64,000 bases of DNA, from NCBI GenBank assembly GCA_000165425.1, contig CT868252.1, positions 186,001-250,000 on the forward strand. Reading direction: 5' to 3'. A program made the position numbers and the translations under genes. Origin of the DNA: Paramecium tetraurelia (lineage: Eukaryota). Numbering within the stretch: the first letter of the stretch is position 1; each line of letters opens with the position of its first letter. Of the stretch, positions 39,559-43,808 are shown piece after piece. Below the pieces are notes generated by a model. That model was not told where the DNA came from and ran no database searches. It saw only the letters and a list, made by a program, of their open reading frames with translations.

Positions 39559-40542
39559 TCAATTATTTCCAAAAACATATCTAGTATAGCCTGGTAATCT
39601 AATCGAATCATCAAGATCTTGTGAAAATCTGGACTATTGTGATATTTTTGAAGTTATTTCATTTTATTCCATTTATTTGCCTTAAAAATTGGTCGTACTA
39701 TCGATTTTGTATTGAAGAACAGGCTATTATTCGATTGACTATCTTGCAGCTAATTGAGGAGGATGAATTAATAAATCTAATTAATGCAAATAGTTATTGT
39801 AAGATTCTTTAGTTGAAAATTTCTTTAGAAACTCATTAAAACTAATTCTACCTGATTTATATTATTAAAGCATGAAGAATACCCTATAATAATCATTCCC
39901 TTTAACTTGAACTCCCTTAGATTTAAGATAACTCACAAAGTCATTGAATACTAAATAGCCTTTTTATTTCTAATCTAATTTTCTAAAAAAGTTTTCAAGC
40001 TATTGAATATCATTTCCTATTTATGTTCTCAGGTGTAAAATGCTCCTTTCCATTTTGGCATATAAGCTAAATATCTAGTGTATTAATTTCTAGTGATCTT
40101 AATTCAAAACTCCTTCGGATAATTATTTTGATTATCTCCATTAAGGTGTAGGTGTGAACTTAAATAGGTTGGCAAACTCTGCATATGAAATTATATTATC
40201 ATCTTCACCACCTAAAGTAGAAAACAAGGACTCAATTTCTTCTCTTTTGAGCAGAATATCTAATTTTTGTAATGTGATAATAAAATCATCTAATTGCAAT
40301 TTCCTATCTCCATTCACATCAAAGAACTCAAAAAGTTTCCATAAACTAAATGTCGGATCATTATTTAATTTGTTTTAGCAATTTGTTAATTACTCAAAAA
40401 CATGATTGGTAGCTATTAAGAAACTAAAAAAATGATATTCCTCAGGTGTAAGTTATTTAAATTATTTTTAGAGTACATTTTTAATATCGTATTACTTATT
40501 ATCATCAACAGCAAGAGGTATAAATGGTTAGGCTTGTTTCAT
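39559..40542 (-). CDS. EF-hand protein
   Basis: LFEFFDVNGDRKLQLDDF, ISYAEF, LDQKQKGYLVFNDF, SGRISFNEF; intronless, 327 aa. Confidence 0.85.
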
Positions 40543-40833
40543 TTTCAAAAATTTTATTTGAAAAATAATAAGTTAAAAAAAATTAGCGCAATCAATCTAT
40601 ATAAATCAAGGACATATTATCATAGTTTGAGAAGAACTTGGATTCTTAGTAAGAATTAGTTTCAAATTTTGTGATTTTTAAGTGTAATTTTATAATTAGA
40701 ACCATTATTCCATGTGATCTTGTCGGAATTAGTCATTTTATATTTATATTTTTGATAAAATATAATGGAATCTAGGATAATTAAATTTTAAATAGTATTT
40801 ATTAGTAATTATTTTAAATAATTTAAATATATT

Positions 40834-42759
40834 ATGTTTGGAGGTGGCATTTTTGGGAATTAAAACCCAGCCTAAACAACTGGAGGAATAGGATAATTAT
40901 TAGGTAATGTAATTTAAGACAATTAAGGTCAATAATAACAATCTACATTTGGAGCACCTTAAGGAGGAGCTATATTTGCAAATCCAGCACAATAATAAGG
41001 TTTATTTGGATCTGCTCCAGGAGCACAAGGACAAACTGGATTTGGTGGCTTAATGGGAGGACAAATGCAATAAGGAGGCCTCGGTGGAGGATTAGGACTT
41101 TAATAACAACCTTAAGGCACATTTGGTTTAACAGGTGGTTTAGGCCAACCTCAAGGATTAGGATAATAAGCTCCTACATTTGGTGGTTTAGGAGGAGGAT
41201 TAGGAACAGGATTAGGAGGAAACCCTGGAAGTGGATTTGGATAATAAACTGGAATGGTAGGTTAAGCTCCATAAACAGGAGGTTTATTTGGTTAATAACC
41301 TTAAAATGGAGGAGGATTGTTTGGTTAATAATAATAACCAACTTTATTTGGCTAATAGTAGCCATAACAACAACAAGCAACAGGATTATTTAGTGTTTAA
41401 CCCCCTGTTAATTAACCTTATGGATAATAATAATAATAATAAGGAGGTTTATTTGGGTAGACACCTTAACAACCCTAACAAGCAGGATATGGTTATGGAT
41501 AATAATCAACTACTCCTTCATTTGGTGGGAATTCACTTTTTGGCTAATAGTAACCTCAATAATAGGGTGGTGTTCTTGGTATGGGAGTAGGATTAGGACA
41601 ACAAGCATAACCAGGTAATTAAATTGTATTGCCTGGAGGTGTGGATGATTCAGTAAATGATGCATCTTTAGAATAAAGAGTTAGATTGGAGGATACAGTA
41701 TCAGCTATTAGTTGGGGAACAACAATACCAAATTTCTTAGCGATATCCTCTTGGGATGGAAAGGTCAGAATTTTGGAAATCTAATAGAATTCATATAAAA
41801 GAGAATTATTTGAAAGAAGATCATTTTAAGTTGATGGGTAAGTTGGATAAGTGAAAAATCCTATAATTTGCATGGATGCTAAGGGAGATTTGTCTCAAAT
41901 TTTTGTAGGATGTGGATTTGATCATACAGTAAAAGTTATAGATACCAACTCAGGTTAAATTGCATCAATAGGATAACATTAAGCTCTAATAATATCAGTT
42001 TATTGGATAGAATCTGCCTAAATGATACTATCTATTTCAACAGATTAATCATTAAAAATGTGGGATGTCAGAGCCCCAGGATAACCAAGATTTTAATGTC
42101 AATTCTAATACAAACCACTTGTGTCTGATTGCAATTTCCCATTATTGGTTATTGGATTTGCATCTGAAAAATTATCCATAATCAATTTGAATGAATTATA
42201 ATAGTTACCAGGAAGATTTTAATACATCGATTCACCATTGGGAACCTATTCACAGTTAACTGCTTTAGCAATATTTCCCTCAAGAGATGGATTCACTTTA
42301 GGTTCTATTGATGGAAGAGGACATTAAACCAATATCACAACCAAATAAACATAAGGTATGCCTACTGAATTTTAATTAAAATCAATCATGACTTTTAAGG
42401 CTCATAAAGTAAATATTTAAATGTTATTTTAGGTTGAAGACAACTAAAAAGGAAAAGTCTAAAACTATTTCTTCCCCGTTAATTGTATCTAAATGAATAT
42501 CAAAAATAACTACTTTCTAATGACTGCAGGAGGAGAAGGTTAAATGATATTTTGGGATATCAATGTAAGAAATAAAATTAGAACATTTTAATTCAATTGT
42601 AATCCTATCGTTTGTGCTAAAATGAGTCCTGATGGTTCCATGCTGGCATATGCTTTAGGAAATGATTTTTCAAAAGGGCCTGAATTCTTTAATGAATTCT
42701 AACCTAAAATATAAGTTCATTTTATTCCAGAAAATGAATTAAGATACCCTAAAAATTGA
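40834..42759 (+). CDS. RAE1: Rae1/Gle2 WD40 mRNA-export factor with N-terminal GLFG/FG-repeat domain
   Basis: About 260 aa of G/Q-rich FG repeats in frame with DTVSAISW, SSWDGKVR, GSIDGR, TFKAHK, TAGGEG..FWD, LAYALGNDFSKG; intron 42409-42432. Confidence 0.88.
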
Positions 42760-43009
42760 TATATATCTATATATTTTTATTCATTCATTTTACTATTTAT
42801 ATCATCCTAAATCTTAATTATCATTTTAAAAAAATGTTATCATATCATTAAGAAATAGATTACTCAAAAATATTTGAAATTGATATTAATATCTAACAAT
42901 AAATATAGATTCTGGTTACTTATAAAATTATCTATAGATTATAATCTTTAATTTACAATAAGACTTATTAATTAATTTTATTAAGTTTTAATACTTGAGA
43001 TAAATCATC

Positions 43010-43808
43010 ATGGGTGCTTCATAAGCTCAAAAACTATTTTAAAAAGCAATAGAAACAGATAATGTTGAAAATGCACAATAAGTTCTTAAATAATTTCCAG
43101 AATTACTAAATACCATTCTTTATCCGGCTGGGAACATCTCTCCTCTAGCAAGGGCATCATGGAGAGGATGCTTAGATATGGTTATGTTGCTTTGCGAAGG
43201 AGGAGCAAATCCAGATGCATCAGATAAAGATGGGTTGACGCCATTAATGTGGGCAGCAAAGAGGGATCATGCAAATATTTGTTGCACATTATTGAGATTT
43301 CATGCAGATATCTCAAAAAGATCAAGAGAAGGATTTACAGCATTAGATTATGCTATTTTACTGGGGAATTATGATTCCGCCTATATTATTTATGAATTTG
43401 ATAAATTGATCTAAGACCCTGCAAGTTATGAATTAATTCGAACTATAAAATAGTGGAGATATGTAAATTATGAGATATTTCTTCAATCATTACAATAATC
43501 AATTATGCCTTAAAATGTTGGTGACTATACTACGAAGCCTTTAGGTAAGGAATATTATGATTTTAATTTAAGGTCGAGTGTACAATGATCCAGTTGTGGA
43601 TCCAAGAGAATCATGGAAGGATATGCTCAAAAGAATCATGAAATTTGATCCTCCTCCTATCTGTGAGAGAAGTGAGTTACCCCCTCATCTATAACCATAA
43701 AATCGATTGTTGGGAAGACTCAATAGTTACATATATGGCATGAATCCTATGCCTATAGAAGGTAATTCAATGGAAATGTAAGTACCTGAAACTAATGATA
43801 TTGCATGA
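43010..43808 (+). CDS. Ankyrin-repeat protein
   Basis: DKDGLTPLMWAAKRDH and SREGFTALDYA; N-terminus MGASQAQ; one intron near 43544-43572. Confidence 0.9.

Follow-up and report, generated by a model that had tools for sequence, protein, structure and literature searches.

A 64,000-nucleotide stretch of Paramecium tetraurelia DNA (contig CT868252.1 of assembly GCA_000165425.1, positions 186,001 to 250,000 of the forward strand; called here the window, with positions counted from its first letter) carries at 40834-42759 on the forward strand a gene whose product joins an N-terminal domain rich in Phe-Gly (FG) dipeptides to a WD40 propeller of the kind found in Rae1/Gle2. In the textbook view Rae1 is a mobile protein of the nuclear pore that is almost without FG repeats of its own and docks by gripping the GLEBS motif in the GLFG domain of Nup98. 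Using RNA data, sequence and structure comparisons and a survey of related proteins, we find that both the FG domain and the Rae1-type propeller are encoded by a single gene, in a single reading frame of a single spliced poly(A) mRNA. We consider it probable that this protein is a Paramecium Rae1/Gle2 whose short N-terminal FG leader has expanded into a 255-residue, charge-free, Gly/Gln-rich domain of the GLFG type.

The gene and its transcript

The window is AT-rich (GC content 0.21-0.31), and only the ciliate genetic code (NCBI table 6, in which TAA and TAG specify glutamine) yields long frames in it. Translated with this code, the segment 40834-42759 is open over 641 codons up to a TGA stop at 42757-42759, with 81 TAA or TAG codons read as glutamine. 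An ATG further upstream, at 40765, opens the same frame; RNA cover begins only at about 40828-40831, so that the ATG at 40834 is the first on the mRNA and the one at 40765 lies off it.

RNA evidence for the region 40600-42900 came from two stranded oligo-dT RNA-seq runs (X20 and X21, as raw reads) and from two assembled contig sets (X3 and X4). The first mates of X20/X21 lie only on the minus strand, the usual sign of RNA from the plus strand, and the reads cover 40831-42755 without a gap. Their depth is about 21-26x across the junction between FG domain and propeller (41524-41754) and 0 in the flanks (40600-40753 and 42833-42900). A contig of 1251 nt from X3 bridges 40831-42105 and one of 1049 nt from X4 bridges 40828-41900, and two in-frame 24-nt introns with GT..AG borders are absent from the spliced contigs of these sets. 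That the contig sets represent RNA follows from these removed introns and from the empty flanks, the labels of the runs being only guessed. The leader before the ATG is about 3-6 nt long and the 3' untranslated region about 40 nt; with both introns out, the coding sequence comes to 1878 nt and the mature protein to 625 residues. The parts of the gene are as follows:

40828..42799, plus strand: transcribed span, from the X3 and X4 contigs (beginning at 40831 and 40828 and reaching 42799) and the X20/X21 reads
40834..40903, plus strand: exon 1, the start codon and first 23 1/3 codons (MFGGGIFG...), with a start that agrees with P0002 and P0003 (see below)
40904..40927, plus strand: intron 1, 24 nt, GT..AG, in frame, left out in one contig each of X3 and X4
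40928..42408, plus strand: exon 2, the remainder of the FG domain, then the linker and the greater part of the propeller, with the 1251-nt X3 contig running across the junction
42409..42432, plus strand: intron 2, 24 nt, GT..AG, in frame, left out in X3/X4 contigs and removed in the NCBI model
42433..42759, plus strand: exon 3, the last propeller blades and the TGA stop at 42757-42759, from the frame and P0002
40834..41622, plus strand: FG domain, residues 1-255 of the mature protein (coordinates inclusive of intron 1), from composition, predicted disorder and conservation in P. sonneborni
41623..41640, plus strand: short linker (IVLPGG...) from the FG domain to the first charged residues, identical in P0003
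41641..42756, plus strand: Rae1-type seven-bladed WD40 propeller (coordinates inclusive of intron 2), from phmmer, AlphaFold, Foldseek and conserved columns

The contig gap for intron 1 was placed at 40902, which is the same join as 40904-40927.

The gene is already modelled in public databases, but it is unnamed and uncharacterized there. A database search with the propeller part found 8 proteins among 1442 candidates, the best being an 'unnamed protein product' of 633 residues from the P. tetraurelia macronuclear genome at NCBI (P0002) and the second a 636-residue protein of Paramecium sonneborni (P0003) with the same architecture of FG domain and propeller. P0002 equals the window translation minus the eight residues at 42409-42432 and reads FKAHK-VEDNQ across the join of intron 2. 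Intron 1 is kept in it as 'NVIQDNQG', and P0003 has a gap opposite exactly this octapeptide; the public P. tetraurelia model thus needs correction for a retained intron, the true protein having 625 residues. Identity between P0002 and P0003 amounts to 79% over the whole length, rising to 90% for the propeller and falling to 64% for the FG part; the gene models of the two species, which are independent, begin at the same MFGGGIFG.

Under table 6 three other frames are open over 310-430 codons across 40350-41870. The skewed composition of the FG-coding DNA leaves several frames open, so that the length of an open reading frame is by itself a poor guide here. TGA occurs in the window at a frequency of 0.021 per codon, from which the chance of 269 codons free of TGA is, by arithmetic, ~0.003; we prefer the argument from conservation to this one because other frames are open as well, and regard conservation in P. 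sonneborni as speaking more strongly for the FG frame than its open length does.

The original prediction, made from the letters of the DNA, had placed FG repeats and a complete Rae1-type propeller in one frame. This is borne out by the RNA, by the P. sonneborni protein and by the phmmer and Foldseek results given below, and the motifs that it had listed (four GLFG, GIFG, TLFG, SLFG and several TFG) agree with a count of the composition. Its description of the frame as continuous holds for the 641 open codons but overlooked the two 24-nt introns inside them, which shorten the mature protein to 625 residues. One of the checks it had proposed, for cDNA across 41560-41720, is answered at the RNA level by a spliced contig and by reads at the above depth that bridge the junction. 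Translation beginning at the internal ATG at 41581, with the FG part separate, had been named as an outcome that would overturn it and did not occur: the RNA depth shows no step there, with ~24-26x on either side.

The propeller is of the Rae1 type

The propeller is complete and begins near residue 270 of the NCBI model P0002. In the AlphaFold model the confidence score pLDDT is mostly above 90 over residues 270-633, and all-beta blades are predicted over 277-622. A phmmer search against the PDB sequences recovered four distinct Rae1 entries (human or mouse) with 98.9-102.4 bits (E-value = 2e-28 to 2.5e-27; query 282-622), the same part of the query being aligned to residues 35-348 of human Rae1. 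Non-Rae1 families reached at most 40 bits; among them Bub3, the other GLEBS-binding propeller, which has the same fold and shared motifs, gave a weaker match of 27.8-28.7 bits (28 against 99-102 bits in round figures). Likewise, in the Foldseek comparison the listed rows down to rank 14 are all Rae1 chains (TMt 0.84-0.88; E-value = 1.5e-25 to 4.7e-24; ~26-27% identity), with the first non-Rae1 row at rank 17 (E-value = 1.2e-17) and Bub3 at rank 18 (TMt 0.78). The nearest three language-model Atlas clusters are labelled 'mRNA export factor' (0.94-0.95) and Bub3 clusters first appear at rank 11, while the Tetrahymena homologue P0005 scores 146-149 bits to Rae1 versus 66 to Bub3.

The motif SIEGR is named as characteristic of Rae1 in a passage of an earlier study (PMC2951903); in the Paramecium protein this motif and the Rae1 motif FKCHR appear at the aligned places as SIDGR and FKAHK. 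Among 46 columns that are conserved in at least 75% of 45 other Rae1-like proteins, it keeps 38, other members keeping 31-46. When set against Rae1/Gle2 of known structure (human and mouse RAE1; PDB: 3MMY, 4OWR, 7VPG and 7BYF), the seven-bladed WD40 propeller of ~350 residues is shared. In the phmmer alignment the human residues R239, F257, W300, D301, R305 and K307, which we take to line the groove for nucleic acid and viral proteins, are each matched by the same residue, whereas K302 faces an isoleucine. By these comparisons of sequence and fold the propeller is of the Rae1 type, Bub3 being clearly the weaker match.

The FG domain

Residues 1-255 of the mature protein contain 14 FG dipeptides, which start with the N-terminal MFG and occur as GLFG (four times), GIFG, TLFG, SLFG, STFG, GTFG, PTFG, TGFG, SGFG and PSFG; 14 of the 16 phenylalanines of the tail lie within such dipeptides. 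The domain consists of 29% glycine, 26% glutamine and 19.6% F, I, L, V and M together. Charged residues (D, E, K, R) are absent up to position 262, the first one of the mature protein being D263. The first K or R lies at about residue 274, and trypsin would therefore release no peptide from the tail or across its junction with the propeller. In the AlphaFold model residues 1-259 have pLDDT below 50 and no secondary structure, which amounts to predicted disorder. A six-frame scan of the 64 kb for 100-residue windows with at least four FG found 8, all 8 of them in the frame of the gene at 40756-41281.

The corresponding domain of P. sonneborni P0003 is also free of charge and has 266 residues with 19 FG, a density of 7.1 per 100 residues as compared to 5.5 in P. 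tetraurelia. The positions of the FG motifs correspond between the two proteins, the insertions and deletions that separate them are all in frame, and at some aromatic sites a Y of P. tetraurelia corresponds to an F of P. sonneborni. At the DNA level the repeats of the FG-coding part are all degenerate (63-89% identity across 19-34 nt), which suggests that the FG domain is old and not a fresh product of slippage; a recent tandem expansion of the DNA was dropped from consideration, given that all repeats are of this degenerate kind. A database search with the FG domain returned 2 proteins among 8000 scored candidates, both from Paramecium, and neither a Nup98 nor a paralogue, a result that says little since low-complexity matches were filtered.

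Relatives and their N-terminal leaders

To place the protein among its relatives we drew on several searches. An exhaustive HMMER search of 1.84 billion representatives gave 25 proteins at E-value <=1e-30, the best of them 39% identical. The 50% cluster of the query itself was missing from this list, though P0002 and P0003 are present in the 90% collection. A profile search started from 17 Rae1-like sequences yielded 22 proteins at E-value <=1e-20 among 2248 candidates and none from Paramecium; P0002 and P0003 were themselves not returned by it, and it is hence uninformative on paralogues. A quick maximum likelihood tree was computed for 53 picked Rae1-like proteins (356 of 841 columns, SH-aLRT support only, midpoint root, no Bub3 or other outgroup). 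It places the Paramecium pair within a clade of 32 rows (SH-aLRT 100) with the Tetrahymena 'poly(A)+ RNA export protein' and a Pseudocohnilembus protein. These named relatives in the clade are bare: Tetrahymena P0005 has 372 residues (MNQPQQQQQD...) and the Pseudocohnilembus protein 368 (MNMQQNQND...). The Paramecium propeller is 37% identical to that of the bare T. thermophila P0005.

We then surveyed the leaders, defined as the residues before the anchor motif of the first blade, in the 96 retrieved proteins of 320-700 residues from the best 150 rows of one search. Eleven of these, including P0132 and P0179, had no match to the anchor pattern and were left out; the 85 counted include the Paramecium pair and some near-duplicates that share a cluster. 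Most leaders have 20-37 residues, and they exceed 150 residues in 2 of the 85, both from Paramecium. At least one FG occurs in 21 of the 85 leaders, and 19 start with M-x(0-3)-FG, as the Paramecium protein does with MFGGGIFG. Other proteins, from transcriptomes or metagenomes, have the same build, a low-complexity leader on a Rae1 propeller, with leaders two to four times shorter than that of Paramecium and fewer FG. The leader of P0028 has 79 residues and 6 FG with GLFG-like motifs and starts MFGQQ; that of P0094 has 142 residues, 4 FG in FNFG/FSFG motifs and 12 charged residues; and P0132, a Rae1 homologue of 486 residues from a Logan contig, has a leader of ~150 residues made of GLG and Q runs with zero F. 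The last of these resembles an 'FG domain without F'. As P0028, P0094 and P0132 fall in the other main clade of the tree, their leaders appear to have grown independently of that in Paramecium. The survey thus indicates that a tiny FG leader is common on Rae1 and has grown several times independently, Paramecium being the extreme case with its 255-residue FG domain where ~20-37 residues are usual.

These results bear on three further points of the original prediction. Its view that Rae1 is normally a bare propeller is right in so far as a long tail is found in only 2 of the 85 proteins, but is too strong given how many leaders contain FG or begin with M..FG. Two outcomes that it had named as grounds for giving it up did not arise: long FG extensions are not a general feature of Rae1 at that same count, and no grouping of the propeller outside Rae1 was seen, it being assigned to Rae1 by phmmer, Foldseek and the Atlas clusters and lying among Rae1-like proteins in a tree that is midpoint-rooted and contains no Bub3.

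Comparison with Nup98-type GLFG domains

In the section of a composition study that deals with these domains (PMC4283134), Nup98 FG domains are reported to have 0-0.5% D and E, 0.1-2.3% R and K, 13-17% FILVM and a median of 9 FG per 100 residues, and lack of charge is described as a signature of cohesive nucleoporin FG domains. For Tetrahymena MacNup98A, the relevant passages of PMC8245513 describe a depletion of D, E, R and K, a richness in GLFG and a GLEBS of 44 residues inside the GLFG domain. As compared to these GLFG domains of Nup98, Nup116 and MacNup98A, the Paramecium tail is also charge-free, predicted to be disordered, rich in G and Q, GLFG-containing and ~20% hydrophobic, the last being close to the value for folded proteins. 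However, it is shorter, with 255 residues (266 in P. sonneborni) as against ~500-740, and lies below the 400-1000 residues expected of such domains; it also has 4 GLFG where MacNup98A has 27.

The Paramecium protein differs from Nup98 in bearing the receptor of GLEBS, i.e. the propeller, in place of GLEBS itself. No GLEBS-like segment was found in the tail, from which a charged island is absent, and no autoproteolytic or anchor domain of Nup98 is among the 27 Pfam families matched at E-value <=0.1. We therefore rejected the derivation of the tail from a piece of Nup98, for lack of a GLEBS-like charged segment and of the Nup98 anchor domain, and dropped the possibility of a single-chain fusion of Nup98, GLEBS and Rae1, the tail being without a charged segment. 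The earlier description of the protein as Rae1 fused to its own GLFG nucleoporin repeat domain is hence correct as to the presence of an FG domain but suggests a piece of Nup98, which the sequences do not bear out. Growth of an ancestral leader fits the sequences better than a Nup98-derived fusion, because an M..FG start is common (19/85), leaders of intermediate length exist, and both GLEBS and the anchor domain are absent.

The probable growth of an FG leader on Rae1, and alternatives

Taken together, we favor as the probable explanation the above Rae1/Gle2 with an expanded FG leader. To judge from the composition, the charge-free GLFG tail would enable Rae1 and its bound ribonucleoprotein particle (RNP) to dissolve in the FG meshwork of the pore or adhere to it, and would also bind transport receptors. 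The tail would then give Rae1 a hold of its own at pores, besides the usual one through the propeller and the GLEBS of Nup98. Since the propeller retains most of the residues conserved in the family, GLEBS docking is expected to persist and not to be replaced. The tail is short and sparse in FG, with 5.5 per 100 residues, and is accordingly expected to be a client of the FG phase of the pore and not a builder of it. A survey of 2011 is of indirect relevance here: in the entries concerned (PMC3032688), the protein that matches human RAE1 and yeast Gle2p best in Paramecium falls in category 4, which stands for partial similarity without a requirement of similar length, and the Tetrahymena match is in category 2. 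This ranking fits, in an indirect manner, with the FG-bearing protein being the best, and perhaps the only, Rae1 in that proteome.

Several observations weigh against this explanation or limit its reach. The match of the tail to the Pfam Nucleoporin_FG model reaches 21.4 bits, under the cut-off of 32.2, and its FG density of 5.5 per 100 residues (7.1 in P. sonneborni) lies below the Nup98 median of 9 given in the consulted section of PMC4283134. In the tree a long stem (1.03 changes per column) leads to the Paramecium propeller pair, and the nearly invariant YDW is NDF in the propeller, with two aromatic positions changed; from these two features the set of partners of the propeller may have shifted. 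The leader survey, drawn only from the top 150 rows of a single search, is tilted towards relatives of the query. Many of its proteins were predicted on metagenome or transcript contigs whose coding table is unknown, and a TAA/TAG-rich leader would be cut off wherever ciliate contigs were translated with the standard code. Finally, the 5' leader is seen to be only 3-6 nt long, and very short 5' leaders in some eukaryotes allow leaky scanning to later ATGs.

Among the alternatives, it is unlikely that the tail is a general prion-like low-complexity domain that takes Rae1 to RNP granules or the spindle and not to pores. The high content of Q (26%) and G (29%), an FG density under that of Nup98 domains, the Y residues of P. 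tetraurelia at sites where P. sonneborni has F, and the F-less GLG/Q-rich leader of ~150 residues on P0132 would all be in keeping with such a domain, and roles of Rae1 in mitosis, with Bub1 and the spindle, are described as established in the part of PMC6411479 consulted. Yet the placing of 14 of the 16 tail phenylalanines in FG dipeptides, with four full GLFG among them, and the zero charge that marks cohesive FG nucleoporins in the same composition study (PMC4283134) point to the pore, and in P. sonneborni FG is commoner (19) and not rarer.

A stronger reading of the original prediction, in which FG-Rae1 as part of a rewired export machinery takes the place of GLEBS docking and acts specifically at the transcribing macronucleus, we consider improbable. 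Its premise on the macronucleus is upheld by the passages of PMC4432229 that concern Tetrahymena, where GLFG-type Nup98s mark macronuclear pores and are specific to them, those with NIFN being micronucleus-specific, and by analogy the Paramecium tail, which is of the GLFG/FG type without NIFN, might be expected on the macronuclear side. However, a literature search gave no paper on nucleus specificity in Paramecium. A replacement of GLEBS docking might be read from the fast divergence of the propeller, with its change of YDW to NDF, and from the match to RAE1/Gle2p of only category 4 in Paramecium versus category 2 in Tetrahymena (PMC3032688, entries as above). It sits poorly with the retention of 38 of 46 family-conserved columns in the propeller, and with MacNup98A, which by the passages cited from PMC8245513 keeps its 44-residue GLEBS, so that ciliates are not generally GLEBS-free.

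An equally improbable variant holds that Rae1 has become its own device for passage through the pore, with FG-FG cohesion of the tail carrying an mRNP bound to Rae1 straight into the FG barrier and replacing a transport receptor, and with the GLEBS tether of the fast-evolving propeller (YDW to NDF) perhaps loosened or lost. Table 3 of the 2011 survey (PMC3032688), as far as its export factors are concerned, leaves TAP (NXF1), Mex67 and p15 not classified in both ciliates surveyed, and this leaves room for a tail that would take over the FG-binding function of the receptor.

Still less probable is a neutral, tolerated low-complexity expansion on a Rae1 that acts through its propeller as elsewhere. 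While the tail does evolve faster than the propeller (64% versus 90% identity) and with insertions and deletions, and Rae1 leaders vary widely in length and composition, its length (255 versus 266 residues), its zero charge and most of its FG places are kept between the species, the repeats are old at the DNA level, and ~790 nt have been passed through without a frame-breaking change. Very improbable, and largely refuted at the RNA level, is an artefact in which the FG part is separate or untranslated upstream sequence and the protein starts at ATG 41581: several frames are indeed open across 40350-41850 by reason of the skewed composition and the observed 5' leader is very short, but a single spliced contig spans the FG part and the propeller, depth does not rise at 41581, intron 1, which lies within the FG part, is removed without a change of frame, P. 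sonneborni conserves the FG frame at the protein level with all insertions and deletions in frame, and the independent models of both species start MFGGGIFG.

Bearing on pore biology

If the explanation by a grown FG leader holds, Paramecium offers a natural variant in which the Rae1 propeller itself bears a Nup98-like FG domain. This would allow a clean test of what an FG tail contributes to residence time at the pore, to the passage of large RNPs and to the choice between two kinds of nuclei, and such a test is practical, Paramecium being amenable to RNA interference by feeding and to tagging with green fluorescent protein. It also suggests that the short MFG leader of Rae1, which is usually cut off or ignored in structural work, is an evolvable module. 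We see the protein as a curiosity with a testable mechanism, which should be moderately surprising to specialists of the pore and settles no long-standing question.

In the accessible text of the literature on Rae1, on nucleoporins and on Nup98 in ciliates we found no account of a Rae1 that bears an FG domain, whether from Paramecium or from another organism, and the words Rae1, Gle2 and GLEBS are absent from an inventory of the Tetrahymena pore (PMC5450191). A recent preprint (bioRxiv 10.1101/2025.08.27.672535) states in the part of its Results concerned that Gle2/Rae1 is broadly conserved across all alveolates and Gle1 is missing in ciliates; a statement in its Discussion has Rae1/Gle2 missing in ciliates. 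The gene in the window and Tetrahymena P0005 indicate that ciliates have Rae1.

Neighboring genes and a second copy

The FG-Rae1 gene stands alone between short intergenic spacers, and the genes that flank it have no evident functional link to it:

39559-40542, minus strand: EF-hand protein of 327 residues (EF-hand_7, E-value = 1.4e-14)
43010-43588, plus strand: ankyrin-repeat protein of at least 192 residues (Ank_2, E-value = 5.5e-16)

The RNA contigs and mixed letters in the reads hint at a second, closely related expressed copy of the gene, over 41871-42174 and at scattered sites in 41513-42660, which is probably the partner from a whole-genome duplication. The RNA contigs are split into unitigs with overlaps of 30 nt at 41871-41900, 42076-42105 and 42145-42174; pieces that are shared show greater depth. 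At 10 sites a second letter is present in 13-75% of the X20/X21 reads (e.g. 42645 G>A in 26 of 38), and loose contig ends past 42410 consist of spliced exon 3 with synonymous differences.

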